Shown one piece after another: positions 812 to 58,139 of a stretch of 64,000 nt of DNA (positions are counted from its first letter, which is position 1; each line of letters starts with the position of its first letter). The stretch is from the NCBI GenBank assembly GCA_963775425.1, contig CAVZJB010000013.1, positions 96,001 to 160,000 of the forward strand. The letters run 5' to 3'. Below the pieces are notes generated by a model. That model did not search any database. It was not told the origin of the DNA and saw nothing but the letters and a program-made list of their open reading frames with translations. A program made the translations under genes and the position numbers. The DNA is from an uncultured delta proteobacterium. Lineage in GTDB: Bacteria; Myxococcota; UBA727; VGSZ01.

Positions 812-3388
812 GCCCCATCCGCTCGACGGACAAGCGCCCGTCCTCCCGCACCGGCGTCGACGAGGCCCGGGCCGAGGAGCCCCGCATCGACCAGCCCGAT
901 GGGCCCGATGGGGCCGGCCTCGATGGGGCCGGCCTCGATGGGGCCGGCCTCGATGGGGCCGGCCTCGATGGGGCCGGCCTCGTTGGGGCCGGCCTCGATG
1001 GGGCCGGCCTCGTTGGGGCCGGCCTCGATGGGAACGGCCTCGACGGGGACGGCAGGCGCGCGCTGCCCGGTGACGGCTTCGACAGGCAACGGGGCACGCA
1101 CAAGCCGCCCGCCGACGTGCCCGTCGTCGGCTCGAGCGTCGAGCTGCCCATCCGCGCGCGGCTCGCCACCGCCCGCGTCGAGCGCTCGCCACGGCAGGTG
1201 GCGGGCGTCCTCGTCGACCAGGACGGCAAGACCACCTTTCAACCCGCCGACGAGAGCCTCGCGGCCACCGACGTCGACGCGGACGGCGTCGCCGGGCTGC
1301 CGCGCGGGGTGCTCCTGGTCGCCCGCGCGACGAACGGAAAGACCGTCGTCGACGGCCCCGGCGGCGACGCGCTCGACGCCGTCGTCTACAAGCTCGACGG
1401 CGAAAACGCCGCCGCGCTGCGCGGGCGCTTCACGGGCATCGTGGACTTCGTCGACGGCAAGCCCTTCGTGAAGGACCTCCTCGGGCACACGTGGGCCGCG
1501 CTGCCCGCCCTTCGCCGCGGGCCCCTTCGCCGAGGGCGCGGTCGTCGCCGGGCACGTCGAGGGCGGCGCCGTCGTCGTCGACGAAGAGCTCGCCGCGGGC
1601 GGCTCCGCGCAGGCGCGCTCGTGGACGGTGGCGGCCGACCAGCACCTCGACCCCATCTTCTCCCCCCGCGCGCTCGAAGAGGCGGCGCGCATCGAACGAG
1701 AGCCGGACGTCGACAATCCCGCGCTCGTCGACCTCACCGGGGAGCCCTTCTTCGCCATCGACAACCCCGGCAGCCGCGACATCGACCAGGCCATGCGCCT
1801 GTCGCGCAGGCCCGGCGGCGGCTTCGTCCTCGAGTACGCCCTCGCCGACATGAGCCACTTCGTGAAGCCGGGCATGGCGCTGTTCGACGAGGCCATGAAG
1901 CGCGGCGCGTCGTTCTACCTGCCGGGCGTGAGCGTGCCGATGCAGCCGCCCTCGGTGTGCGAGGGCGGCGTGTCGCTCAACGCCCACGAGGTGCGTCGCG
2001 CCGTCGTCGTCACCATCGAGGTCGACCGAGACGGCAACGTGCAGAAGACCTCCGCGGCGCGCGCAAAGATCAAGAGCCGCGCGCAGCTCACCTACCCCGG
2101 CGTGAGCGCGTTCCTCGAGAAGGGCACAGCGCCCGCCGACGACGAGCGCGGCGAGGGGGTGCCGAAGGCCGTCCTCGAGCAGCTCCCCGTGTTCCGCGAC
2201 CTGGGCGAGGCGCTGCGCAAGAGCTCGCGCGCCCGCGGCGTCGTCGACCCCGACCGCCGCGAGATGCGCATCGGCCTGCGCGGCGCGCGCTTCTTCCTGC
2301 ACGAGGCCGACGACAACCTGGCGAGCAAGCTCAACGCGGAGCTGTCCATCGTCGCCAACGTCGCCGCCGCGAGCGCCCTCGCGCACCCCGGCATCCCCGG
2401 CATCGAGGTGCCCGGCATCTATCGCGTCCACCCGCCGCCGGGCCCGGCCAAGCTCCGGGCGCTGCGCCGCGAGCTGTCCGCCGTCGTCGACGGGAACGGC
2501 GCGCCCGCCTCGTGGAAGTGGCGCAACGACGAGACGCTCGCGGCGTGGGTCGATCGCCTCAAGGCCCTGCCGAGCACCGATCGCGAGCGCGCGCTCGCGC
2601 AGGCGTTGCAGGCGCAGATCATCGGCATCCAGGTGGCGTCGGAGTACGCGCGCGAGCCAGGCCTGCACTCCGGCTTGATGGTCGAGGGCTACGGCCGCTT
2701 CACGGCGCCGATGCGCGAGGTGGTCGGCTTGGTCTCGCACGCGACGCTGATGCAGCTCGAGTCGCTCAGGCGCGTGCGCGCGCTCGGCATCGTCGACGAC
2801 GCCAAGCTGCCGGCGCTGTGGGACCACATGCTGCTCGGCGCGCTCGTGGACGAAAAGGAGCTCGCCCCGGACCGGGCCGCGCTGGCGGCGCGGTGCGCGG
2901 CGCTCGAGGGGCTGCGCGGCGACGCGCTCGCGCAGGCGGCGCGGGCGGCGCTGGCGGCGCTGGCGCCGGCGCCGCCGCTGTCGTCGGAGGACAAGGGCGC
3001 CGTGGAGCGGGTGCTCGCGCGCGCGCTCGACGTCGGCAACAAGTCGCGCATGAAGCAGAAGCAGTGCGACGCGGCTTCGCTGCGGCTCTTGTTCGACGAC
3101 CTCTTCCTGCGCGACCTCCACGGCGTCCCCGGCGGCGACCCGAGCCGCCCGTCGACGCCGCGTAGCGGGACGGTGACGGCGGTGTCCCCGGGCAAGATCG
3201 TGGTGCACCTCGACGAGCCCGACGTCGAGGTGAAGCTCGGCCGCGGCGACCTCGGCGACGGCGACTTCCGCCTCGAGCGCGACGGCGCCGAGCTGTGCTG
3301 CGGCGCGCGCAGGCTCCTCGTGGGCCAACCCGTCGAGATCCGCGCGACGCACCATGACGGCGAGAAGCTTCACTTCGCCCTGGTGTGA
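808..3388 (+). CDS. RNB-domain (RNase II/R family) exoribonuclease, split by a +1 frameshift near 1505-1511
   Basis: Catalytic motif FAIDNPGSRDIDQA, YGRFTAPMRE motif and S1-like C-terminus; the N-terminal frame (808) joins the 1628 frame if one C is removed from cccgcccttc. Confidence 0.85.
898..1050 (+). repeat. 15-bp tandem repeat (gatggggccggcctc)n encoding GAGLD/GAGLV pentapeptides
   Basis: About 9-10 units directly visible. Confidence 0.95.
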
Positions 3389-4817: not shown

Positions 4818-6179
4818 ATGGTCGACATCGACGACCCCACCGTGGAGCCCGCCACCGCCGTCGCCCCCACCGCCACGGCCCCCGCCCTCCGGGTCGTCTT
4901 CTCCGGCGAGCAGATCGTGTGGTCCGACCACGTCCTCGAGGCGCCCCGCACCGACGCCGGCCGCGCCGCCCTCGGCGCCAAGGACCTCCGCCTCGAGCAC
5001 GACCCTCGCGTCTCCCGCCAGCACGCCACCTTCGTCGTCGAGCGCGGGCGCGTGCGCCTGGAGAACCGGAGCAACAACGGGAGCTTCGTCAACGGCGAGC
5101 GCGTCGACGACGTCCGCGAGCTCAACGACGGCGACGTCGTCCGCCTCGGCGACACCTTCCTCGTCGCGCGCTGGATGCCCGACAACCCGCGCGACGTGCC
5201 GTCCGACACGCTGCTCGGCCGCTCGCCGGCGGTGATGCGATTGCGCTCGCTCGTCGACGTCGTCGCGCCCACCCGCGCGAGCGTCGTGCTGCTCGGTGAG
5301 ACCGGCGCAGGCAAGGAGGTGGCCGCGCGCGCCATCCACGCGCGCAGCGGCCGCGGCGGCCCCTTCGTGCCCGTCAACTGCGCCGCCATCCCCGAGAACC
5401 TCGCCGAGAGCCAGCTCTTCGGGCACCGCGCGGGCGCCTTCACCGGCGCGCACAAGGATCACGCGGGCTTCTTTCGCGAGGCCCACGGCGGCACGCTGTT
5501 CCTCGACGAGGTGGGCGAGCTCCCGCTCTCGCTGCAGCCCAAGCTCCTGCGCGTCCTCGACGAGAAGCACGTGCTCGCGGTGGGCGCCACCAGCGGCGCC
5601 CCCGTCGACGTTCGCGTCGTCGCGGCCACCAACCGCGAGATCGCGCGCGAGGTGGAGATCGGCCACTTTCGCGGCGACCTCTTCGCGCGCCTCGCCGAGA
5701 TCACGGTGTCGCTGCCGCCGCTGCGCGCGCGCCGCGAAGACGTGCTGCTGCTCCTCGACAGCGCGCTGCCCAAGCTCAAGCACGGCGAGATGACGCTGTC
5801 GCCGCTGCTGGTGAACGCGCTCATGCTCCACGCGTGGCCGTTCAACGTGCGCGAGCTGATGAAGATCGCCACGGAGCTCGAGGTGAAGGCGCAGGGCCGC
5901 CGGCTCCTCGACGTCGATCTGCTCGAGGGGCGCGTGCTCGGGCCCAAGCCCACCGACAGCGCGCAGCCCATCACCCTCGCGGCGCCCGCGCCCGCGCCGG
6001 CGCCGGCGAAGAAGCGCGCCGAGGACCTCCCGGCCCCCACGCGCGACGCGCTGCTCGCGCTCGTCGAGCGGCACCAGGGCAAGGTGAGCGACGTCGCCCG
6101 ATCGACCGGCCGCTCCCGCACCCAGGTGTACCGCTGGCTCGAGCAGCACGGTATCGACGTCGAGAAATACCGGCGCTAG
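4818..6179 (+). CDS. FHA-domain sigma54-dependent transcriptional activator (bEBP)
   Basis: FHA ([15 protein letters not shown]), Walker [15 protein letters not shown], Walker [18 protein letters not shown]-terminal HTH. Confidence 0.95.
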
Positions 6180-6188
6180 ACCCGCGAT

Positions 6189-6995
6189 ATGAACACGCTC
6201 AAGTGGCGCCTCCTGAACACCTGGCACGCGTTGTTTCTGGCCACCTGGTCGGTCTTCTGGATGACCGCCGCCATCGTCGCGCGCGTGCTCACGGGCAGCG
6301 CCGACACCACGCTGCGCTGGGCGCGCACGCGTTGGTCCCCGGGGCTGTGCTGGTGCGCGGGCGTCCGCCTCGCCGTCGAGGGCCTGGACAAGATCGACTT
6401 CGACAAGCCGCACGTGTTCGTCGTGAACCACCAGTCGATGTTCGACATCCCCGCGATGTTCATGGCGCTCCCCGTCAACCTGCACTTCATCGCCAAAAAG
6501 GAGCTCGCTTCGGTGCCGTTCCTCGGTTGGTACATGCGGGCGGCGGGCATGATCTTCGTCGACAGGAAGAACGGCCCCGAGGCCGTCGCCACCCTCAAGA
6601 TCGCCGGTGACCGCGTCGCCGGCGGCGAGAGCGTGCTCGCGTTCGCCGAGGGCACGCGCAGCCGCACCGGCGTCATCGGCCCGTTCAAGAAGGGCGCGTT
6701 CATGCTCGCGCTGCAGGCGGGCGTGCCCGTGGTCCCCGTGGCCATCGAGGGCGCCCGGCACGCGCTGCCGGCCGACGGCTTCGCCGTGCGCCCGGAGATC
6801 ATCCACATCCGCCTCGGCGACCCCATCGCCACCGACGACGGCGTCGAGCGCGACGCGCTGATGGCGCGCGCACACGACGCGGTCGTGCGCATGAACGTCG
6901 GCCTCGGCGGGCTCGGCGCCGACCCGTTCGCGGCGTCGCTCACGAGCGGCGGCGCGGACGCCGCGCGCGTGTCCGCCGTCGCCCGGACGGTGTAG
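6189..6995 (+). CDS. plsC: 1-acyl-sn-glycerol-3-phosphate acyltransferase
   Basis: NHQSMFD, FIAKKEL, FAEGTRS and FKKGAF motifs. Confidence 0.9.
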   Translation: MNTLKWRLLNTWHALFLATWSVFWMTAAIVARVLTGSADTTLRWARTRWSPGLCWCAGVRLAVEGLDKIDFDKPHVFVVNHQSMFDIPAMFMALPVNLHFIAKKELASVPFLGWYMRAAGMIFVDRKNGPEAVATLKIAGDRVAGGESVLAFAEGTRSRTGVIGPFKKGAFMLALQAGVPVVPVAIEGARHALPADGFAVRPEIIHIRLGDPIATDDGVERDALMARAHDAVVRMNVGLGGLGADPFAASLTSGGADAARVSAVARTV

Positions 6996-7016
6996 CCTCG
7001 CGGCGCGAGGTGGAAC

Positions 7017-7715
7017 TTGGGCACGGGTCTGCGAGCGGTCTACGACGACGGGAAGCGCCACAGCGAAGGCACGGTCAAGGGCATGTGGAGCTCGGGCATC
7101 GTGCTCGAGACCGACGTACAACCGAGCATCGGCAGCGCCGTCGCGCTCGTCGTGCTGAGCGGCGGCTTCGACGGGGACCGGCTCGCGGCGCAGGTCGCCG
7201 GCTTCGAGAAGAACGCGCTCTTGCTCGACCTCCCCGGCCTCGATCCCGTTCGCTGGCAGCGCCTGCAGGCGCTCGTCGACGGCAAGCCCCTCACCACGCC
7301 GCTGCCCGCGGGCGCGCCCGGCAAGCAGCCGCCGCCGAACGCGCCGGTGTTCATCATCTCGGGCGGCGAGGACGCCCAGGGCGATCCCACCGGCGTCTTC
7401 AACCTCACCGAGGACATGGCCAAGAAGCAGGCGGCGCCGGAGCCCGCGCCTGCGCCCCCGTCGTCCTCGTTCCAGATCCCCTCGCCGCTCGATCCCTTCC
7501 CCTTCGCGCCGGCGCCCGCGGGCTCCCCCGCCACGCCGCCGCCCGTCGTCACCTCCGACGAGGGCCTCGAGCAACAGGTCATCGCGCTCGGCCGCGAAAA
7601 CGCCGCGTTGAAGAACGAGGTCCAGCGCCTCAGCGGCTTGAAGGCCGCGCTCGAGGAGGAGCTCAAGGACGCGCTCGACAAGCTCGACGGCATCGAAAAG
7701 ATGATGAAGCGCTGA
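7017..7715 (+). CDS. Hypothetical protein: PilZ-like N-terminus, Pro-rich linker, C-terminal coiled coil
   Basis: MWSSGIVLETDVQPSIGSAVALV resembles PilZ beta strands; heptad-rich C-terminus. Confidence 0.6.
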   Translation: MGTGLRAVYDDGKRHSEGTVKGMWSSGIVLETDVQPSIGSAVALVVLSGGFDGDRLAAQVAGFEKNALLLDLPGLDPVRWQRLQALVDGKPLTTPLPAGAPGKQPPPNAPVFIISGGEDAQGDPTGVFNLTEDMAKKQAAPEPAPAPPSSSFQIPSPLDPFPFAPAPAGSPATPPPVVTSDEGLEQQVIALGRENAALKNEVQRLSGLKAALEEELKDALDKLDGIEKMMKR

Positions 7716-7716
7716 G

Positions 7717-8142
7717 CTACAGCGCGATCTCGCCGTCGGCGCGCTTGGCCGGCAGCGGCTCGCCCAGCAACCGATCGATGCAGCCCTCGCGCGCCCGCAC
7801 CGAGAGCGAGCGGTCGTCGGCGCCTCCGGTGGCGCCGACGCGGGTGAGGGTGACGTCGACGCGGAAGTACGGCTCCGAGCCCACCCACGCGGGCTCCACC
7901 TTCTTCACCGCGTAGCGCTCGATCTTCTGCGGACCGAGCACCGCCGCTTCGGCGCGCTGCTCGTGGCCGTCACACACGTGCGCCGCGAGGGACTTCTTGT
8001 CGCCGGCGACGGCCGCGTCGAGGAACGCGCGCACCACCGCCTCCGCCTGCACACCCGTCGCGGCTTTGAGCGCGCTCTTGCCGTTCGCCGCGGAGCACCC
8101 CGCGGTGAGGACGATGACGGCGGCGACAAAATGGGCGCGCAC
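7717..8142 (-). CDS. Hypothetical lipoprotein
   Basis: Signal with LTAGC lipobox; coding-like codon usage. Confidence 0.7.
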   Translation of the reverse strand: MRAHFVAAVIVLTAGCSAANGKSALKAATGVQAEAVVRAFLDAAVAGDKKSLAAHVCDGHEQRAEAAVLGPQKIERYAVKKVEPAWVGSEPYFRVDVTLTRVGATGGADDRSLSVRAREGCIDRLLGEPLPAKRADGEIAL

Positions 8143-25298: not shown

Positions 25299-25392
25299 GG
25301 CCTTGCAGGCTACGCCAGACACGACACCGGCACACAGCGCGCGCGCCGCCAGAGGGCTGTTGAATTTGCGACGGGGCGCCGATAAGGCAGCG

Positions 25393-25479
25393 CTGCTGCT
25401 GCGCAATCGCAACGCCCGAACTCCGCCAGGCCCGGAAGGGAGCAACGGTAGGGTCCCCTGCGATGTGCGCAGCGGCCTT
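25393..25479 (+). ncRNA. ffs: Signal recognition particle RNA (small bacterial SRP, 4.5S)
   Basis: Domain IV motif CCGCCAGGCCCGGAAGGGAGCAACGG; closing stems gctgctgcgca/tgcgcagcggc and atcgca/tgcgat; T-run after. Confidence 0.93.
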
Positions 25480-25551
25480 TTCACGCGCGGCCGTTCTCTC
25501 CGGCCGCCTGACGCCGCGGCCGCCGGGCCGCAGACACCGCGAGGTCCCTGG

Positions 25552-50603: not shown

Positions 50604-51443
50604 ATGCCGAGCCGAGCCGATGTCGCACCCGCCGCCACCTCCGTCGCTCCGTTCGCCCGTCGCACCTCCACGCACACGACGCTCAAGCGCCTGCGCGCCG
50701 CCCAGCGCGTCGCCTGCGCCGGGCTCGTCGCCGCGACCGCCGCCGCGTGGGTGAACCTGCTCGACCTGCGCGCGTTCCCGTCGGGGATCGCGATCCCCGC
50801 TGTGGTGGCGCTCACGGCCGCGGCGGTCTTCGCGCGCAAGCCGTGGCTCTCGGTGCTGCCGCGCGCGGCGCTGTGGGCGAGCCTCTTTTGCGGCGGCTCG
50901 GGCGCGCTCGTCGCCACGACCTCCCGCGAGGAGCACACGGCCCTCGTGCTCCTCGCCGTCGCCGCCGTCGCCGGCCTCGTGTCGCTCGGCCGCTTCGCGC
51001 GGTCGATCGGCGGCATGCGTCCGCTGCTCCTCGCGCTCGTCGTCATCTCCGTCGCCGACGCCGCGACCACCGGGCTGCTCGCGACCTTCGTGGTGATCGG
51101 CGACTCGGCTTCGAAGCTCCACACGGAGATGGGCCCGCTCCTCGCCGTCGGCGGCGCGTGTCTCGCCAACGTCACGGGGCTCTTCTTCATCCTGAGGAAC
51201 CGCCGCTTCGCGCCCCACCTCATCGGCAACGGCCTCGTCGCGATCTTGAACGCCTTCGACGTCGCGCACCTGCACCCGGTGCACTGGCTCCTCGCGGGCC
51301 CCGCCGCTTTGCAGGTGCTCCTCGCGCTCGCCCAACGCCTGCCGCGCATGTCGAGCGCCGCGCGGCGAAACGGGGAGCGCGTCCTGCGCGGCGCGCTCGT
51401 CGCCGCCGCCGTCGTCGTCGCGACCAGCGCGCTGTGGCGTTGA
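50604..51443 (+). CDS. Hypothetical polytopic membrane protein
   Basis: Many hydrophobic segments; start uncertain. Confidence 0.65.
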   Translation: MPSRADVAPAATSVAPFARRTSTHTTLKRLRAAQRVACAGLVAATAAAWVNLLDLRAFPSGIAIPAVVALTAAAVFARKPWLSVLPRAALWASLFCGGSGALVATTSREEHTALVLLAVAAVAGLVSLGRFARSIGGMRPLLLALVVISVADAATTGLLATFVVIGDSASKLHTEMGPLLAVGGACLANVTGLFFILRNRRFAPHLIGNGLVAILNAFDVAHLHPVHWLLAGPAALQVLLALAQRLPRMSSAARRNGERVLRGALVAAAVVVATSALWR

Positions 51444-51476
51444 ACCGCCGCGCCACGATGAGGGAGCGCGGCGACG

Positions 51477-52025
51477 TCAGTGCGCGTCGTCGACGTCGAT
51501 CCAATACCGGCAGGTCTCCCGCTGCACCTCGACGGGGAAGATGATGTCGCCGAGGACGCCGCCGTTTCTCTCGATGCTCTTTCGCGAGCCCGTGTTGGAC
51601 GGCGCGCACGTCACGAGGATCCGCCCGATCGCGCGAGCGCGGTCGGTGGCGAGGAGGAGCCGGAGCATCGCGGTGGCGACGCCCTGCCGGCGAAACGACG
51701 GCCGCACCTCGTAGCCGACGTGCCCGCCGAAGCGCGCGAGCTGGTCGTTGAGCCGGTGTCGAAGGGCGATGACCCCGACCACGGTGTCGTCGACGACGCC
51801 CCAGTGCACGGACTCCGGGACGGCCGGCGGCGCGGGCGCCGTCTCCTTTTGCAGGAGCTTGGCGACGAACGCCTCGGGCGCTTCGTCCGCGTGGGGAAGC
51901 CGGCTCGGCCAGATCGTCTCGCCGGCGACGCGCATCTCTTCGATGAGCTCGAGGTACGACGAGAAGAGCGCGACGGATGGACGAGCGAGCGCGACGTCGG
52001 GGGAGATGATGCCGCCCACGAGCAC
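51477..52025 (-). CDS. GNAT family N-acetyltransferase
   Basis: LRHRLN...GGHVGYEVRPSFRRQGVAT, NTGSRKSIERNGG. Confidence 0.9.
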   Translation of the reverse strand: MLVGGIISPDVALARPSVALFSSYLELIEEMRVAGETIWPSRLPHADEAPEAFVAKLLQKETAPAPPAVPESVHWGVVDDTVVGVIALRHRLNDQLARFGGHVGYEVRPSFRRQGVATAMLRLLLATDRARAIGRILVTCAPSNTGSRKSIERNGGVLGDIIFPVEVQRETCRYWIDVDDAH

Positions 52026-52083
52026 GAGGCTACCCTTGCTGGTCGCTTCGGCGATGCCTTGGACACCGATCTCCGCCGCGAAC

Positions 52084-52315
52084 GGGCGAGCGGGGAGCGG
52101 TCACGTGTACGGCGAGCGCGTGCGGCTCACGTGCGCGGTCCCGGCCAGGGGACCGCGACCGCTGCCGCGACCGCGAGTCGCACGCGCTGCCGGAGAACCC
52201 GCGTGATGGGCGAGCGGGGAGCGGTCACGTGTACGGCGAGCGCGTGCGGCTCACGTGCGCGGTCACGGCCAGGAGACCGCGACCGCTGCCGTGACCGCGA
52301 GTCGCACGCGCTGCC
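52084..52315. repeat. Two 108-bp hairpin-forming direct repeats (124-bp period), REP/BIME-like
   Basis: Copies at 52084-52191 and 52208-52315; internal arms agcgcgtgcggctc/gagtcgcacgcgct and gcggtcacggc/gccgtgaccgc. Confidence 0.9.
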
Positions 52316-52515
52316 CGTCCACGCCCGCTGTCCGCTCCTGAGCCGGGCTCGTGGCTGACCGGCTCTGCTCTTCGCCGCGCACCTTCCGCGCCAGCGCCCA
52401 AGGGCGATCGACGCGGGCCGAAGATTCGATCCCCTCAGCGACGGAGGTGAAGATCGCCGTCGAGCGATGGAAGCCTGCCGTGAAGCCGTCGACGGAGGAG
52501 GAGCGACTCCTCGCC

Positions 52516-52964
52516 AGACCTCGGCGACGCCGCCGCGCGCTCCATCGTCTCCGAGCGCGTGCGCTCGTCGGGCGAGCGCGCGCTCGTCGTCACCGAGGGC
52601 GTGCTGCTCTATCTCGACGACGCCGACCTCGACGCCCTCGCCCGTGAGCTCGTCGGCTGGGCGCCGTCGGTGTGGTGGCTCCTCGAGCTCGCGTCGCCGG
52701 AGCAGCTCGCGCGGCAGCGGCGCGCCTGGAGCCGTTCGCTCGACGCGGCCGGGGCGGAGATGCGCTTCGCGCCCGGCGACGGCGTCGCCTTCTTCGAGCG
52801 CCGCCGGTGGCGTGTTCGGGAAGAGCGCCCGTTGCTCGCGGCGGCTGCGGCGGGAGATGCCGCGCGCGTGGCTCGCGCGCCTCGCCGCGCGCGTGAGCCC
52901 GCGTGCGGCCGAAGAGATGCGGCGCGCGCTACTCCTTCTTCTCCTCGAGGCGACGCGCGAGTGA
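52516..52964 (+). pseudogene. C-terminal remnant of an LCM/TcmP-like O-methyltransferase
   Basis: DLGDAAAR...ALVVTEGVLLYL...MRFAPGDGVAFFE; no N-terminus; frameshift near 52850. Confidence 0.7.
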
Positions 52965-53471
52965 CTCGCCCGGCTCGCGGTCGCGGTCGACGAGGGGGAG
53001 AGGCGGATCGTCGATGCCCTCGTCGCCCGCTGCGTCGTCGGCGCGGCGGCCGGCGGTCCAGATGTCGGGGTGGTCGCCGGCGCGTTCGAAATCCTCGGCC
53101 GGCCGGCTCCGCTTCTGGCGCGCGCGTTCAGGCATTCGCATGGCGCGTCCCTCCTCCTCGGACATGTGCATGCTTCACGCCACGCCCACGCACGAGCGAG
53201 GCGGCGGTGCAGGCGACGCGGGTGCCGCCGGCGGCGGTGCCGCGCTTCGCGCGCCCGTCGCACAACGCCGGCGTACGGGACGGCGAAGACGCTCCCCGCG
53301 GCGAGCGAGACCGCGATGCCTTCTGGGGCGTCGCCCGCGCCACCGCGCGTGATCCCGCGTTGCAGGGTGAACAGTGCGTCGTGGCGCAGGCGCCCGGGCG
53401 AGGCGGCGATGCGCCGCAGCCTGCGGCGGGCGCGCGCCGACTGCCGGGATCGTCGAGGACGTATGCACCGC

Positions 53472-53604
53472 GAGCCCGAGCTACGCACCGATGCCCCTGG
53501 CGTCCTCGAGGCGCTTCACGTCCTCCAGCGGTGAGCGCGAACGCGAGCGCGGTCACGGGGCCCACGCCCTTCACACGGAGCAAGCGGGCCGTCTCACGGA
53601 ACTG
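53472..53604 (-). mobile_element. IS110-family transposase fragment
   Basis: ETARLLRVKGVGPVTALAFALT/LEDVKRLEDARGIGA*LGL with a frameshift and a stop. Confidence 0.75.
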
Positions 53605-54226
53605 CCATCAGCTCGACGTCGAGCAGGTGGAAGAGGTTGTTGAACCTCTCGCTTCGGTGCGCTCGAGCTCTTCGTGCGACGCGGAGGCGGGTTTGCGCCG
53701 TGAGCCCGCCGCTGGGTGGGTGCGGACGGTGCCCTCCTCGAGCGCCGCGCTGGCGTCGCGTCCTTCGCTCCGACGGCGTTACCCCGTCCTCATCGGGACT
53801 ACGACGCGATCCGACCTCGCCGTCGCCGTCTGCCTCTCTCGTCTCTTCGACTCGTCGGGCATACTCGTCACCTCGCGGCGAAAAGAGCGGCGGGGATCTC
53901 CCAGGTTGCCGCAGCAGCATCATGTGAAGCGCGATCGGGTCTTCGACCCCGGGTGCCGTCGACGCGCTCGCCATGACGCTCGTCGACGTGTTGCCTTCGG
54001 TGTGGTCGACCACCTCGGCGCAATCCACCAGGAACAATCTTTCGGGGCTCCATCCCATTCATGGCCGAGCAGCCAGCTCGGTCCATTCGACCTCGCTCCC
54101 TTTCTGTCTACGCTTCAACGCCGCCGTTGCCGTCGACGCTGCAAGACTCGCTACGAGACGGTTGGCTATTCCTTACCTTGGCGGGATCCACCCCCGCTTG
54201 TTGCTGCGACCTTGCCTGGTCGATCC
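53600..54226 (-). mobile_element. Truncated group II intron: domains I-III plus the first ~30 codons of the RT/maturase
   Basis: Minus strand shows ...CGACCAGGCAAGGTCGC, TGAAGCGTAGACAG, GAGCCCCGAAA, GAAGGCAA, AACCTGGGAGATCC; DIII-like GTCGGAT..CGTAGT.CCGATGA..GGTAAC..GGAG.GAAGG; then ARAHRSERFNNLFHLLDVEL. Confidence 0.85.
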
Positions 54227-54247
54227 GTCCGTGGTTTGTTGGTGGCC
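54227..54247 (-). other. attC-like site, half only (cut by the group II intron)
   Basis: Minus GGCCACCAAC-AAACCACGGAC, complementary to GTTGGTGGCC at 55074-55083 and similar to the arm at 56113-56130. Confidence 0.7.
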
Positions 54248-54288
54248 GCACGCCGCTACGTCCCGCCGCTGGTGCGTGGCCGAGTGAC

Positions 54289-55050
54289 TCACAGGCGGTG
54301 CCCAACCAGCTTCAGGGTCCGAAGGGCGCCCCCTGGCGTCACATAGATCTTCTCTTCGAATTGCCCCCAAGTCGCACCTTCGCTAACCCACCCGACAACT
54401 GCCGGTCTCCGTCTCGTGGTCAGGTGCGGCCAACCGGTGATCAGGCTGATAACCGGAGCTCCGCTGATGCCGCCGAGCTCGTCACTCGTGCGTTGGGCCT
54501 CAGTGCTGCCCTCCATCTCGTGCGTCGCTGGATTGAGTCTGATCGAGAACTGGTCGGGCTCAACGGTCGTGACTGTTGCAAGACGCTCCGCCCGAGTAAG
54601 CGACAGCTGACGATTGCCAACGATCACTTTCCCGGCCCCCGGAAAACCGAGAAACGCAACGAGTTCGAAGCGCCTCACTGGTTTCGCGACTACCTCGTCA
54701 GTCGAGATGATCTGTGATCCGACGCCCTCGACTTCGTCGCGGTGAATCGCAATGGCGCCGACGTCGGGCTTTTCGCTGAATGAACACGGCCGCGAGTCGT
54801 TTCCCCGGATGATGACGTTTGGAGTCCGCCCTACCTGCAGCGCGGCATTCTTACCGCGGCTCCGAAACTCCGCGAGCACGTGCCCCGCAGTCACGAGCCA
54901 TGCGCTCCCGTCGATGTCAATCAGCGACCCGGTAGCCATTTGAGGTTCCACGCCTGCCGCTGTGATGAGGAGAAGCGGGATCGCCCTAACGTCTAGGTAC
55001 TCAAATGCCCTTGCTTCGGTCTTCTTGTAGTCGGCTAGCGAGAAGGACAT
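54289..55050 (-). CDS. Trypsin-like serine protease (cassette cargo)
   Basis: WLVTAGHV, PDVGAI and GGISGAPV triad motifs; no signal peptide. Confidence 0.8.
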   Translation of the reverse strand: MSFSLADYKKTEARAFEYLDVRAIPLLLITAAGVEPQMATGSLIDIDGSAWLVTAGHVLAEFRSRGKNAALQVGRTPNVIIRGNDSRPCSFSEKPDVGAIAIHRDEVEGVGSQIISTDEVVAKPVRRFELVAFLGFPGAGKVIVGNRQLSLTRAERLATVTTVEPDQFSIRLNPATHEMEGSTEAQRTSDELGGISGAPVISLITGWPHLTTRRRPAVVGWVSEGATWGQFEEKIYVTPGGALRTLKLVGHRL

Positions 55051-55073
55051 CGTCGCAGCATTCCGCTCATCGA

Positions 55074-55148
55074 GGCCACCAACGTTGGGAGTGGCCGACA
55101 GCCGCGCCACGCACCTCCATTTTGGCGCTGCGTCACGACGGAGCGCAA
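55074..55148 (-). other. attC-like site, half only (cut by the ISKra4-like element)
   Basis: Plus CACCAAC-GT-N10-CGACAGCCGCGCC aligns with the left arms of the two intact sites. Confidence 0.65.
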
Positions 55149-56003
55149 GGGTGTGGATCTGACCCTGAGCATCGGCTGACCGATCGATGGCGGGGCGCGA
55201 TCGCGTGAGCGACACAGTGCCATGGCGAAGATCACCCTCGATGTCCCAGACGACGTGGCGGAAGAACTGAAGGCGCTGGAGGCGCGGTTGAAGCGGCTTG
55301 AGGCTGACAAGATCGGCATCGAGGACGCGATCCCCGAAGACGACATCGACGTGGTCACGAAGGGCATCGCGCTCTCCTTGAAGCGGAGGTCGCTTCAATG
55401 CCTCGACATCGACGCCGAGAGAATCCTCGTCGACGGAGAGCCCCACGCCAAGGTCGGCCGGTACGCGGCGACGTACTCTACACGCGGGAAGGGCCGGTCG
55501 CGGTGACGCGGAGCCTGTTCGGCAAGTGCGGCGTACGGAACGGCGCCACCGTTGACACCGTGAGTCTTCGATGTGGCGCGGTCGACGGATGGCTGCCGAA
55601 GACGGCAAGGGCGTTGGCGTTCCTCATGCAGCAGGGGACGTCGCGGGAAGCTGAAGCCTCGTCGCGCGAGCTCGGCGTGTTGCCGTACTCCCGCAGCAGC
55701 TTCGAGCGTGTGGGCCACGACGTCGGACGCCGATACAGCGACGTGCGCTACGACGTCGAGGACGCGCTGATCCGCGGCTACGTCGTGCCGCGTGAGGCTC
55801 GGAGCATCTCCGTCTCGCTCGACCGCGTCGCCGTGCCCTTCGAAGAGCTTCGCACGCGCAGCCCCGGGCGACCGCCGAAGGGTGCGCCGAAGCGGCCGAT
55901 CAATCGCGTGCGGCACATGGTCTACGTCGCCACGGTCACCATTCACGACGGCGACGGCGAAGCGCTCCACACGATCCGCTACGGCCGTGTCCCCGACTAC
56001 GGG
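55149..56003 (+). mobile_element. ISKra4-family-like transposase remnant (frameshifted, 3'-truncated)
   Basis: LDIDAERILVDGEPH...TREGPVAVTRSL...SRSSFERV...SVSLDRV...TIHDGDGEALHTIRYGRVP; ORFs at 55222 and 55398 join near 55480; putative left end GGGTGTG. Confidence 0.7.
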
Positions 56004-56130
56004 AGCCAACGTAGACCATGTGTGGCACCCGCGCCGCACGCCATTGATGATGCCACCGAGCCGAGTGACCCGGAGCCGCACCGCCGAAGGCGGATGCGGC
56101 GGAGTGCCCTGCGCACATGGTTTGTTCGGC
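56004..56130 (-). other. attC-like site (127 bp)
   Basis: Plus AGCCAAC-GT-AGACCATGTG...CACATGGTTT-GTTCGGC imperfect inverted repeat. Confidence 0.8.
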
Positions 56131-56174
56131 GGCGCGGCCCACGAGAGCCGCCGGTGCCATCGCGGTCGCGTCGA

Positions 56175-56566
56175 TCACCTGAGAAGTCCCGCGTCGATGA
56201 CTGCGTCTTTGAACGTCCGGATGAAATCGCTCAGCTCACGGATATCGAACTTCGCCCAATGCACGTCGCCACCGTCGGCCTGTAACGTTGCGGACGCCCA
56301 GGTGAAGACGATGCTTACAGTATCTCGCTGAGTGAGATCGGTAAGTGCTGCGTGACGGCGACTGCCGTCGACTCGCGGGTTGCGAGCGTCTGCAGCTCAT
56401 CGACGACACGGAGCACCTCGGATGGAGCAAGAGCCACGAGCTCGGTATCGACGGGATCCCTACTTATGGTGATTGCGTAGAGATCGTCGTCGGAGTCGAG
56501 GACGTCGTCGAGTTCGACCTCCCAGGGTCCACTTCTGCCGACACCGGCAAGGCCCCGCTCAGTCAT
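56175..56566 (-). CDS. Hypothetical cassette gene, probably frameshifted near 56340
   Basis: ATG at 56566 shortly after the GTT core; first frame stops at 56315, a second frame continues ...VSIVFTWAS...DAVIDAGLLR* to 56175. Confidence 0.55.
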
Positions 56567-56592
56567 ACGTTCGAACCCCGCAATACGTCGCC

Positions 56593-56810
56593 GCCGAACG
56601 TTGCGCACGTGCGGCACCCGCGCCGCACGACGTTTCTACTGCCGCTGCCCCATGCGAGCAACGATGACGTCAAGGCGCGGGTGACCCCGCTGGCAAGTGA
56701 GTAGCTCGCGACGCCGAAGGCGGTCGTCGAGCGTAGTTGCGGTGGCGTGCACCGCCAGGTGCACGTCTCTCTCCGGGCCAGCGGGGCTTTGCGCACGTGC
56801 GTTGTTCGCT
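56593..56810 (-). other. attC-like site (218 bp)
   Basis: Plus GCCGAAC-GT-TGCGCACGTG...CACGTGCGTT-GTTCGCT; shares GGCACCCGCGCCGCACG and CGCCGAAGGCGG with the 127-bp site. Confidence 0.8.
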
Positions 56811-56828
56811 GACCGGGTGACGGCAATG

Positions 56829-57530
56829 CTACGGGATGAAGAGCTTGCCGCCTGAGTCAGAATTGATGAGGCCAAGAACGCATTTTCGGGCGCGGGGATG
56901 GGACTTGGCGAACGATTCAGATTGATCGGCCTTATGTGCGTCCTCGCTGCAGTAGAGCGTCGCTTCACTCAACCCCTCCGCGGCCATCGCCTTGCGAAGC
57001 AAAGCCTCTCGTTGGGCGTTTGGGGTCTTCGCGTTGAACGACTTCACGAGGATCGCGCCGCTCTTTCCGCCCGTCAGCAGCTTCACAGTTTCGAGGACTG
57101 TGTACGACGGAAGCCCGTCGCCGGCCGCAACGGCCTTTTGGGTTTCGTCGATCGCGCCGGGCGGCTTGTAGCCGGGCTTCTCCCATAGTTTCGTTTTCGG
57201 TGTATTGCCTACCGCAGGACGCCAAGCGGTGACCACGTCGTCACCCTGCACGTAGAAATCGACCGCGCCGGACTTCGTTTCAACGATCTGATGCTGGCCG
57301 CCGAACCATGCCGCTGGCTGCTGAGGCTTCTCGGCTACGCCGAACTCGGCTTTCTCGAGCACGAACTTCTGAATCGGGGGAAGGACGGACGTGGCGTCCG
57401 CCGGCGGCGGAGGCGCAGCCTCTGCCGCACGCGCCTTCGTCGCTTCCGCCTGCGATGGTTGCTCGTCATCGGAGCAAGCCACACAAGTCGACATGACGAC
57501 GAGCGCTGCGAGAGCGCGGCTCTGATTCAT
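56829..57530 (-). CDS. Hypothetical lipoprotein (first cassette cargo)
   Basis: MNQSRALAALVVMSTCVAC lipobox; atypical codon usage; stop 18 nt before the attC-like site. Confidence 0.75.
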   Translation of the reverse strand: MNQSRALAALVVMSTCVACSDDEQPSQAEATKARAAEAAPPPPADATSVLPPIQKFVLEKAEFGVAEKPQQPAAWFGGQHQIVETKSGAVDFYVQGDDVVTAWRPAVGNTPKTKLWEKPGYKPPGAIDETQKAVAAGDGLPSYTVLETVKLLTGGKSGAILVKSFNAKTPNAQREALLRKAMAAEGLSEATLYCSEDAHKADQSESFAKSHPRARKCVLGLINSDSGGKLFIP

Positions 57531-57593
57531 CAATGGGAGGCGACGTCCTTCTCCGCGGAGCTTCAGCACTCTTCCTCCAGATTGGCAGCTTCT

Positions 57594-57650
57594 GTCAGCG
57601 AACCTGATTCTCGCCGACGTTCATGTCGGTGAGTCGAACGGATTCTATCA
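57594..57650 (-). promoter_or_regulatory. attI-like head with candidate Pc-type promoter
   Basis: First GTT core lacks an attC arm; direct repeats AGAATCCGTTCG/AGAATCAGGTTCG; TG-A-TAGAAT extended -10 pointing into the array. Confidence 0.5.
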
Positions 57651-57989
57651 GGTCATGGCGATCTCTCGGCTACCGGCGTGGTCTGGTGGTCGAGCTTCAT
57701 CGACGTCGACGAGGGTGATCGTGGACGGGAGGCATTTCGCGTCGCTGAAGGTTTGGCGACGCGCGTCGACGGCGGATGTCACGTGGGGGAGCGCGCGCCG
57801 CAGGCCGGCGGTGGAGGCTCCCGGAGGCGCCACCGCCGAGCGCCCCCGAGGGTGCTCGCTCCGTGAGTCCCGGCGGCGCCGGGGTGGCGCGGAGGGAGCC
57901 GGAGCCGCTGGCCAAGGCGTGCGCGGACAGTGGAGCGGAGGGCGACGACGAGGCCGTGGGTGTTTCGTGGAGGAGCGCCGCCGGCCGGG

Positions 57990-58106
57990 ACGGCGGCGAG
58001 CGGCTCACCCCGAAGGGGCCCTTCCGCAGGCGCCCTCGCGGCGGTGCTCGAAGTGAGGCGGGGAGCGCCGAGGACCGGGCCCCGAGGGGTGAGCCGTTCG
58101 CCGCCG
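57990..58106. repeat. Long intergenic inverted repeat
   Basis: cggcggcgagcggctcaccccgaaggggccc ... gggccccgaggggtgagccgttcgccgccg. Confidence 0.75.
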
Positions 58107-58139
58107 GACCAGGCGGCGCGGTCCATCCCATGCGGGAAA

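Follow-up and report, generated by a model that had tools for sequence, protein, structure and literature searches.

Paired attC-like sites with a mirror-side bulge in an apparently decaying cassette array of an uncultured delta proteobacterium, and a covarying site family in its relatives

The window, a stretch of 64,000 nt from the genome of an uncultured delta proteobacterium, contains two intact attC-like sites, designated S1 and S2, together with remnants of further sites, the genes between them and inserted mobile elements (Table 1). Both sites were found in place at the coordinates given by the initial annotation. On the + strand they have a common layout, in which a 5' box of the form NNNNAAC leads into a 3x1 internal loop where GTK faces T. 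A stem of 10 bp, a single bulged G and the pairs GC(A) come next, and a variable loop whose apex forms a GAA hairpin precedes a 3' box of the form GTTNNNN. The earlier assignment of the + strand as the bottom strand fits three features: the cassette genes are encoded by the - strand, and it is the + strand that carries the GAA-loop hairpin and has G as its bulged base. A single public sequencing run was found, with 7% of sampled words present.

Table 1. Sites, genes and mobile elements of the array, in window coordinates.
Feature	Position	Strand	Remarks
IS110-family transposase gene fragment	53471-53605	-	88% over 135 nt to gene at L009 1898-2839
Group II intron 5' fragment (domains 1-4)	53937-54225	-	RF02005, 137.3 bits at 53937-54189
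Box and gene-proximal arm of further site	54226-54244	-	Cut by intron 12 nt past AAC triplet
Degenerate third site	54245-54330	+	Interior homology to S1 only; arms not intact
Trypsin-like peptidase-like ORF	54289-55050	-	253 aa from ATG at 55050; then degenerate site
Two overlapping frames, frameshifted gene remnant	55222-56003	+	Readable only up to S1 left edge
Site S1	56004-56130	+	127 nt; bottom (non-coding) strand; model R1, 86.2 bits
S1 boxes	56004-56010 and 56124-56130	+	Loop 56011-56013
S1 stem	56014-56023 with 56113-56122	+	Bulged G at 56024
S1 GCA/TGC	56025-56027 with 56110-56112	+	GAA-loop hairpin 56082-56093
Cassette body between S1 and S2	56131-56592	-	Three-frame translation
C-terminal-looking piece, S1-S2 cassette	about 56176-56300	-	Other frame
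Acidic ORF, S1-S2 cassette	56315-56566	-	83 aa
Site S2	56593-56810	+	218 nt; model R1, 104.1 bits
S2 boxes	56593-56599 and 56804-56810	+	Loop 56600-56602
S2 stem	56603-56612 with 56793-56802	+	Bulged G at 56613
S2 GCA/TGC	56614-56616 with 56790-56792	+	GAA-loop hairpin 56712-56723
Cassette ORF	56829-57569	-	246 aa from first start; stop 18 nt before S2
Lone hairpin-less box	57597-57603	+	Exact reverse complement of S2 3' box

The cassette body between S1 and S2 represents either one broken gene or two small genes, and no Pfam family was found for 56315-56617. The cassette ORF beyond S2 belongs to no family in Pfam or NCBIfam, and its product, read from the ATG at 57530, is likely a lipoprotein. 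The lone box is an array end of the attI-proximal type that is not followed by a recombinase gene; the equivalent lone box adjoins a recombinase in loci L165, L187 and L181. On the other side of S1, the trypsin-like ORF matched Trypsin_2 weakly, at an E of 0.0057 that falls short of the cut-off, and has its stop inside the degenerate site, on which model R1 gave no match. GTTGGTG (54238-54244), originally listed as a third core, is indeed a box, belonging to a further site that was disrupted by the group II intron and is now fused to the interior of the degenerate site. The two overlapping + strand frames, which had no match in Pfam or NCBIfam, presumably resemble a transposase N-terminal region, and the gene in L009 to which the IS110 fragment corresponds scored 186 bits on NF033542. 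No recombinase was found on the window contig (C13), which leaves the window without an integron platform. Elsewhere in the source genome, on contig C11, lies a copy of the recombinase gene without neighbouring sites, its reading frame shifted after the catalytic core and before the C-terminal domain. The window array retains two intact sites and remnants, includes a broken cassette gene, and has been entered by an IS110 element as well as a group II intron; the array system of the source genome looks dead or dying, a decaying relic.

The intron fragment was assigned to Rfam group-II-D1D4-6 and lacks an RT ORF, the YADD motif being absent from 51001-55700; over 643 nt it shares 89.7% identity with a complete copy in a relative (G084). 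Three copies (two in the source genome, one in G084) occupy one fixed position inside sites with the same junction. In repeatedly entering cassette sites the intron resembles the group IIC-attC introns, which PMC3001079 describes as inserted in the bottom strand of attC, in the orientation opposite to that of the cassette genes. The intron described here differs in having the same orientation as the cassette genes, both in the window and in L164, and in its location in the gene-proximal arm, 12 nt past AAC. The possibility that the sites are mere ends or targets of the intron or of IS110 was rejected, as only 1 of 46 modelled sites (L164 5954-6114) abuts either element.

The 17-mer common to S1 and S2 occurs twice in the window and twice in the entire 8.26-Mb genome. 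The 12-mer hairpin that had also been reported as common to the two sites is present at both positions, but it has 34 copies genome-wide. When the geometry originally proposed was written as a regular expression (AAC, 2 nt, 11-nt arm with at least 9 pairs, 1 nt, GCA ... TGC, 11 nt, GTT), the genome yielded two matches, S1 and S2. Comparison with homologous sites modified this geometry in two respects. The stem itself is real, but the first of its 11 proposed pairs is unpaired in 13 of 19 sites, so that the true layout is a 3x1 internal loop and a 10-bp stem; the GCA/TGC element likewise stands in part, its third pair being present in just 8 of the 19. Searching public genomes with AACGT-N11-GGCACCCGCGCC gave at least 120 entries with one match each, and among the matches listed none had a 3' arm that pairs at 9 or more of the 11 positions; these were judged to be chance matches from the missing pairing 3' arm.

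Folded as single-stranded DNA, S1 gave -32.0 kcal/mol on the + strand (z -2.92, equalled by 0 of 200 shuffles) and -32.4 kcal/mol on the - strand (z -2.16, equalled by 6 of 200), energies that are equal and thus express no preference for the + strand. The corresponding values for S2 were -76.2 kcal/mol (z -6.12) and -72.6 kcal/mol (z -4.94). A generic scan of the window for AAC...GTT hairpins returned 20 matches per strand at the threshold used, among which S1 and S2 were not outstanding; the signal therefore lies in common geometry and homology rather than in hairpin strength.

A covariance model made from sites of the S1/S2 type found 46 sites in seven genomes of the same bacterial family. 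Model R1, run on 38 genomes of the order, had matches in eight, including the source genome (four sites) and G084 (27 sites); outside family f1 there was one weak match, and family f2 gave 0/21. Covariation in the stem, the absence of which the initial annotation had named as one of two refuting outcomes, was strong in alignments of both 19 and 46 sites. In the 19 sites chosen by hand, changes on both sides affected 8 of the 11 stem pairs and 92.3% of cells were paired, with a covariation score of 0.315 against 0.141 for shuffled alignments (reached by 0 of 500) and 0.024-0.078 for slid controls. In the 46 model-aligned sites, compensatory changes were present in 11 of 15 modelled pairs, 92.9% of cells were paired, and the score was 0.386 against 0.125 shuffled (0 of 500) and at most 0.056 slid. 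The hairpin structure of the site family is thus conserved by covariation. The three AAC/GTT pairs are standard in 44/44, 44/44 and 41/44 cells, giving the inverse core ...AAC and core GTT... that characterize attC; the outer four box bases are NNCS rather than strictly RYYY. As an indicator of the folding strand, G·T and C·A cells numbered 23 and 24 overall, which gives the + strand no clear advantage, and 15 and 1 at the pair beside the loop, where the + strand is favoured.

The 7-nt boxes that flank the gene between two sites are reverse complements, including all four variable bases, in 16 of 19 adjacent site pairs, compared with 1/40 for boxes within one site and 164/2000 for random pairs. 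Both cases in the window follow this rule: the S2 5' box is the exact reverse complement of the S1 3' box, and S2 and the lone box are related in the same manner. Box halves are exchanged between neighbouring sites, and the outer core bases go with the neighbouring cassette, as they do in attC.

In the relatives G084, G069 and G137 the array terminates in a box without a hairpin, next to which a tyrosine recombinase gene is transcribed divergently. The order in G084 is sites, cassette ORF, lone box, ~390 nt and recombinase, and this layout is repeated in G069 (lone box at L187 1550) and G137. All three family genomes with an intact recombinase gene and more than 1 kb assembled upstream therefore have the platform of an integron, namely a recombinase, an adjoining attI-type site and cassettes transcribed away from it, although these three adjacencies are not independent, as all array-bearing genomes belong to one bacterial family. 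The first cassettes of the three genomes had no mutual blastn or tblastx matches, and the DNA on the other flank of the recombinase is 82-88% identical among three congeners (G084, G069 and G026); cassettes have turned over next to a conserved flank.

The recombinase consists of Phage_int_SAM_4 and Phage_integrase domains, and its best NCBIfam match is the integron-integrase model TIGR02249, at 194.7 bits where the cut-off is 265. The match is split in two pieces that skip model positions 179-234, and in an alignment with four true IntIs the ~45-aa IntI insertion was missing from 8 of 8 family members, while the catalytic R, K, HxxR, H and Y were conserved. By score and by the absent insertion between the catalytic motifs the protein falls outside IntI; it is nonetheless the closest IntI relative in these genomes, and its top Foldseek match in the PDB was VchIntIA (2a3v, E 7e-16). 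Conserved extensions are present at the N-terminus (~65 aa) and the C-terminus (~90 aa), the latter predicted to be a folded domain (pLDDT 80-89). The IntI-specific insertion is what reads the extrahelical bases of classical attC. A divergent recombinase specificity, first proposed from the sites, gains support from the three arrays that end beside an IntI-like recombinase without the insertion.

From these observations it is likely that S1 and S2 are the attC analogues of an integron-like gene-capture system of this bacterial family, with a mirror-side bulge and an insertion-less recombinase, and that in the source genome the system is a relic. Three other explanations were weighed against this reading. 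In the first, the sites and cassettes are real but are moved by a different enzyme (host XerC/XerD acting on the folded strand, as for CTX phage, or an integrase missing from the assembly), and the recombinase is adjacent by inherited synteny. This would agree with the restriction of every adjacency to one family, with the recombinase-free arrays in the window and in G084 (L166), and with the further Xer-type genes in both of these genomes. It would also agree with the distant recombinase homologues (44-54% identity; five loci, L182-L186, in families f3, f23 and f24), for which neither the scanner nor self-BLAST found site arrays within 6-12 kb upstream. It leaves unaccounted for that the recombinase lies exactly at the hairpin-less end, in divergent orientation, that cassettes vary while the far flank is conserved, and that the adjoining enzyme is the one most closely related to IntI; moreover, among 10 family genomes the recombinase was found in seven and the sites in six, and the two coincide in five. 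We therefore regard a different enzyme as improbable.

The second explanation, which is very unlikely, is that the sites are ordinary attC of a classical integron whose IntI is missing from incomplete assemblies, the geometry being normal variation. AAC/GTT triplets, box complementarity, the GAA loop and cassette packing are all classical traits, the source genome is 94.55% complete, the relatives' arrays lie at contig ends, and classical IntI genes over the cut-off were present in 11 of 401 genomes sampled from the phylum. Against this, no IntI was found at E≤1e-40 in 10 family genomes or over the cut-off in the source genome, and a different recombinase terminates three arrays. The geometry was compared with 22 aligned classical attC sites, 20 from a Gemmatirosa plasmid integron and two of class 3. 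In 21 of these the gene-proximal arm reads box (7), 5 nt, 3 bp, extra base, 6 bp, extra base, and the other arm 6-3-6; the 22nd (aacA4 attC) was misaligned and its register was read by eye. S1 and S2, which had been described as non-canonical, do not thread onto this register: in place of 5/6 spacers, 3 bp, an extra base and 6 bp, the new family combines the 3x1 loop and the 10-bp stem with one bulge, at base 14. A proxy classical model from the 22 sites, narrow enough to miss one of the two class 3 sites on which it was trained, did not match S1, S2 or the sites of G084, G069 and G137 at E up to 10, and the new-family model did not match the classical sites. The scanner found no classical attC arrays next to any of five classical intI genes from this phylum (L026-L030), and direct-repeat search likewise found none in L026-L028.

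The position of the bulge also separates the two kinds of site. PMC5027507 locates the extrahelical bases close to L'', on the arm that faces the bottom-strand AAC, reports that IntI1 binding shifts to the top strand once these bases are inverted, and notes that the bottom-strand loop of attC often has GAA. In the new family the bulge and the excess loop bases are on the arm with the bottom-strand AAC, with the cassette genes on the other strand, rather than on the L'' arm. In other respects the likeness to classical integrons (e.g. the Vibrio superintegron and classes 1-3) is close: a gene with a downstream imperfect palindrome between ...AAC and GTT... boxes, outer box bases that move with the adjacent cassette, an attI-type box that lacks a hairpin and adjoins a divergently oriented tyrosine recombinase, its core closest to VchIntIA, variable cassettes that include toxin-antitoxin and defence-like genes, and a GAA loop and bulged G on the bottom strand. 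The window array, with at least two sites and a recombinase absent from the contig, resembles a CALIN, a class that an excerpt of PMC4889954 defines through the classical attC model, whereas the window sites belong to a different structural family. The third explanation, that the sites are structured intergenic elements without a recombination role (terminator-like, or REP/MITE-like palindromes spreading downstream of genes), would suit stable folds directly downstream of genes in a GC-rich genome where hairpins abound, but is very unlikely, as it explains neither the box-half exchange in 16 of 19 neighbouring pairs, nor why a lone box closes the array next to a recombinase, nor cassette turnover beside a conserved flank, and MITE copies would be expected to share arm sequence rather than to covary.

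If S1 and S2 are attC analogues, each cassette unit would be a gene followed by one site, and the array would begin at the attI-like box adjoining the recombinase. The non-coding strand (bottom; + in the window) would fold into the hairpin, and the recombinase would cut within 5'-AAC-3' of the gene-distal box; we infer this strand and cut position from where the cassettes are bounded and from the polarity that tyrosine recombinases generally have. The cut strand would be exchanged with the attI-like box or another site, so that the four outer box bases swap along with the cassette, and replication would then resolve the product, as it does in integrons. The bulge corresponds to the inverted extrahelical base configuration, with which IntI1 selects the wrong strand, and the system would therefore need a recognition mode of its own, possibly provided by the extra N- and C-terminal domains. 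A more far-reaching proposal, which we put forward tentatively and with some doubt, is that of a separate integron-like lineage, in which a relative of IntI, with the insertion lost or never acquired and the conserved terminal domains used in its place, recombines hairpins bulged on the cleaved arm, a mirror image of attC.

Integron detection and the accepted mechanism of integrons both rest on the IntI insertion and on the L''-arm extrahelical bases, which direct the choice of the bottom strand. Cassette logic is retained in the new family, as seen in its box swapping, its attI-type array end, the variability of its cassettes and the conservation of its platform, but both hallmarks are altered together. 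Were the system active, it would represent a second solution to strand choice in folded-DNA recombination and a natural test case for the evolution of IntI from Xer-like enzymes, and IntegronFinder-type surveys would probably overlook such arrays. Recombinase homologues formed at least 120 clusters, which among the matches listed were 47-82% identical, most over at least 90% of the length, and carried the labels Deltaproteobacteria, Myxococcota, Planctomycetota and Phycisphaerae. Since the recombinase family is large and labelled from several phyla, arrays unseen by current integron finders could, if there is indeed a separate lineage, be widespread in soil and aquatic bacteria. A metagenome search with the recombinase alignment, with generic tyrosine-recombinase peptides as query, kept 80 loci that were 32-42% identical, over core residues ~70-340 only, and so gave no information on this family in particular. 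The relatives' cassettes carry toxin-antitoxin genes and a NACHT/HD-type defence-like gene, a content that matches the idea of chromosomal arrays as stores of defence and stress genes.

The two intact attC-like sites of the window array, S1 and S2, were present as the initial annotation had described them (56004-56130 and 56593-56810). An exact 17-mer common to both occurred twice in the whole 8.26-Mb source genome (G000), and a regular expression for the proposed geometry matched no place in that genome other than S1 and S2. The GAA-loop hairpin said to be shared by the two sites lay in each at the place assigned to it, its 12-mer not being unique (34 copies genome-wide). Both strands of both sites folded better than their shuffles. 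In a generic scan for AAC...GTT hairpins, such hairpins were common in this ~72% GC DNA and S1 and S2 were unremarkable by stem score; the weight rests for these two sites on common geometry and homology. With small corrections the observation on S1 and S2 was confirmed, and its interpretation as a distinct site family is supported.

When the S1-S2 region was compared by BLAST with the 38 order genomes, many partial matches appeared in one relative of the same family (G084), spaced ~0.9 kb apart and at contig ends. These stretches were arrays of the same kind of site, with the inter-site genes on the strand opposite to that reading AAC-GT...; the cassette genes encoded HigB, HicB-like, DUF4258 and T2SSG-domain proteins and an HD-CE/NACHT/ClpX-zinc-finger protein of 1195 aa. 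Nineteen sites were picked by hand and aligned, and pairs were counted for the structure originally proposed. Covariation was found in the stem, with changes on both sides at 8 of the 11 stem pairs and 92.3% of cells paired; the covariation score was 0.315, compared with 0.141 in shuffles (reached by 0/500) and 0.024-0.078 with the partner slid. The first pair of the proposed ~11-bp stem was mostly unpaired (13/19 sites), and the third pair of the proposed GCA/TGC was present in just 8/19 sites.

A covariance model of the new family (R1) found sites in 8 of the 38 order genomes, G000 included; the matches covered 6/10 other genomes of the family, with one weak match outside it. In G000 the model found S1, S2 and two more sites outside the window (C13:287791-289585, on the same contig; L206, L211). 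The latter form a second small array with complementary facing boxes, in low-GC patches. Among 46 R1-aligned matches, compensatory change was seen at 11/15 pairs, 92.9% of cells were paired and the covariation score was 0.386 vs 0.125 in shuffles (0/500), in an alignment that was fitted to R1 and leans towards the model and with kinship among sites inflating the shuffle tests. Because of the slid controls and the many pair types, we argue that the modelled stem is real. On the plus (recombinase-sense) strand the consensus reads NNNNAAC, G-T-K, a 10-bp stem, G, GC(A), a variable part, (T)GC, a 10-bp stem, T and GTTNNNN, with the bulged G in 43/46 sites. Among the papers listed by full-text searches on integrons, atypical integrases and integron-like arrays, no title or abstract opening described such sites.

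Classical attC was represented by 22 sites: two from an annotated class 3 integron, in which gene orientation is known, and 20 from a classical array that adjoins a true intI gene of a Gemmatirosa plasmid. In 21/22 the coding strand read box, 5 nt, 3 bp, extra base, 6 bp, extra base, and the other arm 6 bp, 3 bp, 6 nt, box; the 22nd, the aacA4 attC, did not align properly, and its layout was taken by eye. By this layout the classical extra bases therefore lie on the gene-proximal arm, in agreement with PMC5027507, whereas the bulge and excess loop bases of the new family lie on the gene-distal arm, which on the bottom strand is the arm carrying the AAC triplet. According to the same paper, IntI1 binding shifts to the top strand when the extrahelical bases are artificially inverted, and in one site this inversion reduces recombination of the bottom strand by over three orders of magnitude (PMC5027507). 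Since inversion shifts IntI1 in this way, a classical enzyme would be expected to take new-family sites in the wrong orientation. The new sites keep the classical triplets (AAC/GTT) and box logic, and on the bottom strand they likewise have a bulged G and a GAA-loop hairpin. A proxy covariance model of classical attC (R2) recovered 21/22 of its own training sites and one further site of the same array; with E values up to 10 allowed, R2 had no match among the new-family sites, a weaker result than one from the standard attC model would be, R2 being narrow. R1 matched none of the classical sites. The plasmid array (Gemmatirosa kalamazoonensis plasmid 1, NZ_CP007129; L299 151-12775) held at least 21 classical attC sites on the 3' side of intI, with top-strand geometry on the intI strand, i.e. 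the co-oriented ('inverted intI') layout, and with G as the extra L-box base on the top strand.

Boxes were compared between neighbouring sites of a stretch, the right box of each against the left box of its successor. In 16/19 adjacent pairs all four variable box bases were complementary, as against 1/40 for the two boxes of one site and 164/2000 random pairs; the 3 exceptions include two gaps large enough for a missed site. In the window, the S2 left box is the exact reverse complement of the S1 right box. Complementarity of boxes across a gene is what classically marks cassettes whose cutting and joining take place within the box; the half-boxes flanking a gene belong to one cassette and pair once the site of that cassette folds. 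At four array ends (L165 and L166 in G084, L181 in G137, and the window) the first gene was immediately preceded, in coding-strand reading, by a lone, attI-like 7-nt box, and no hairpin separated the two; a lone box was also present in L187 (G069), where cassette genes were not called. The four ends fit cassettes in which each gene precedes its site and, as in integrons, the gene-distal box is where crossover takes place. Tyrosine recombinases cleave 3' of their binding arm; given this and a gene-distal crossover, the reactive strand would be the non-coding strand, cut in its 5' AAC.

In G084 the best match to the integron-integrase model and the innermost site of one of the arrays are 1.5 kb apart (see table). 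That model was also the best NCBIfam match of the encoded protein, at 194.7 bits, below the cut-off of 265, and in two pieces with model positions 179-234 skipped; archaeal XerA (190 bits) and XerD (170 bits) followed closely. Eight family members were aligned with four integron integrases, IntI3 and three true IntIs from this phylum. The IntI insertion (~45 residues) was absent and the catalytic residues were kept in 8/8; a C-terminal extension was common to 7/8 and an N-terminal one to 6/8, the exceptions being the G000 copy, cut before the C-terminal domain, and L177, which lacks the N-terminal stretch. Among PDB folds, the predicted structure (mean pLDDT 73.9; C-terminal domain 80-89) matched VchIntIA best; at the sequence level XerA and IntI4 were nearly tied. 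In G084 a lone box ~390 nt upstream of the recombinase gene is reverse-complementary to the right box of the innermost site; a cassette gene lies between the two, and no hairpin adjoins the lone box. The layout recurs in G069 and in G137 (a different genus), the comparison being limited to these three genomes since contigs of four other family genomes end <700 nt from the recombinase gene. The first cassettes are unrelated among the three, and beyond the gene, on the side away from the array, three congeners (G084, G069, G026) share 82-88% DNA identity. The divergent recombinase specificity postulated from S1 and S2 gains support, three relatives' arrays ending beside an IntI-like recombinase that lacks the IntI-specific insertion, and the presumed working platform of the site family is visible in these relatives. 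No such enzyme running a cassette array was described in the titles and abstract openings of the same listed papers. Of the 401 phylum genomes sampled, 7 of the 10 in the family had the recombinase, as did 5 from three other families; the best 120 clusters of a large protein collection were 47-82% identical, mostly over at least 90% of length, and carried generic names only. No arrays were found near five more distant genomic homologues.

G000 itself has no classical integron integrase, and contig C13, which carries the window array, has no tyrosine recombinase gene. The G000 recombinase copy, on contig C11, is a frameshifted pseudogene, unless its change of frame is an error of the assembly, and no sites were found within ~10 kb of it. 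S1 and S2 lie within a lower-GC stretch (~53600-57800; 60-65% GC vs 70-80% around), and the window array is a decaying, recombinase-less array of the distinct attC-like family.

Features of the window array, in minus-strand reading from 57569 downwards, and recombinase genes of the family
Feature	Coordinates	Strand	Remarks
Lone 7-nt box	57597-57603		right of array; exact reverse complement of S2 right-hand box
ORF	57569 to 56829	-	followed by S2
Small acidic ORF and second piece in another frame	56566 to ~56176	-	followed by S1
Frameshifted gene remnant	55222-56003	+	ends at S1 edge
Trypsin-like ORF	55050 to 54289	-	runs into degenerate site
Degenerate site	54330 to 54245	read on -	end of trypsin-like ORF reaches into it
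Box and first arm of further site	54244 to 54226	-	directly after degenerate site; cut by group II intron fragment
Group II intron fragment	53937-54225	-	RF02005, 137 bits; 5' fragment
IS110-family transposase fragment	53471-53605	-	adjoins intron fragment
Recombinase gene (G084)	L165 3067-4455	divergent from cassettes	462 aa; Phage_int_SAM_4 and Phage_integrase domains
Recombinase copy (G000)	C11:877120-878401 (L172)		C-terminal domain in other reading frame than catalytic core

In the window (54238-54330) a box is fused to the interior of the degenerate site, and in G084 (L165 1403-1689) a complete site is directly followed by a second site body without its own left box; such fusions may arise repeatedly as a by-product when recombination uses secondary positions. 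A GC-rich inverted repeat (57979-58118; two 47-nt arms with 77% complementarity and 46 nt between them) is located between the end of the array and a DUF3857 gene. Two direct copies of a 108-nt sequence, with 97% identity and starts 124 nt apart, lie to the left of the mobile-element debris (52084-52315). An ordinary bacterial small SRP RNA gene was found at 25392-25482 (RF00169, 66.7 bits).

Three copies of the group II intron were located: window 53937-54244 (minus), L009 ~3037-3167 and L164 ~5950-8090. Both G000 copies are 5' fragments; the full copy, in a G084 array (L164), has an RT/maturase ORF with one in-frame stop. In all three the 5' junction splits the conserved triplet between G and CA, 12 nt past the AAC triplet of the gene-proximal arm. 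As the exon sequences differ, the copies are separate events, one intron family having inserted three times at the same position in sites of the family. The introns are oriented as the cassette genes; published IIC-attC introns point the other way (PMC3001079). Relative to the hairpin asymmetry, intron orientation is the same in both systems. The second G000 intron fragment, ~5 kb from the second small array, is adjoined by a full IS110 gene (NF033542, 186 bits; L009 1898-2839) at G000:C13 ~294-295 kb.
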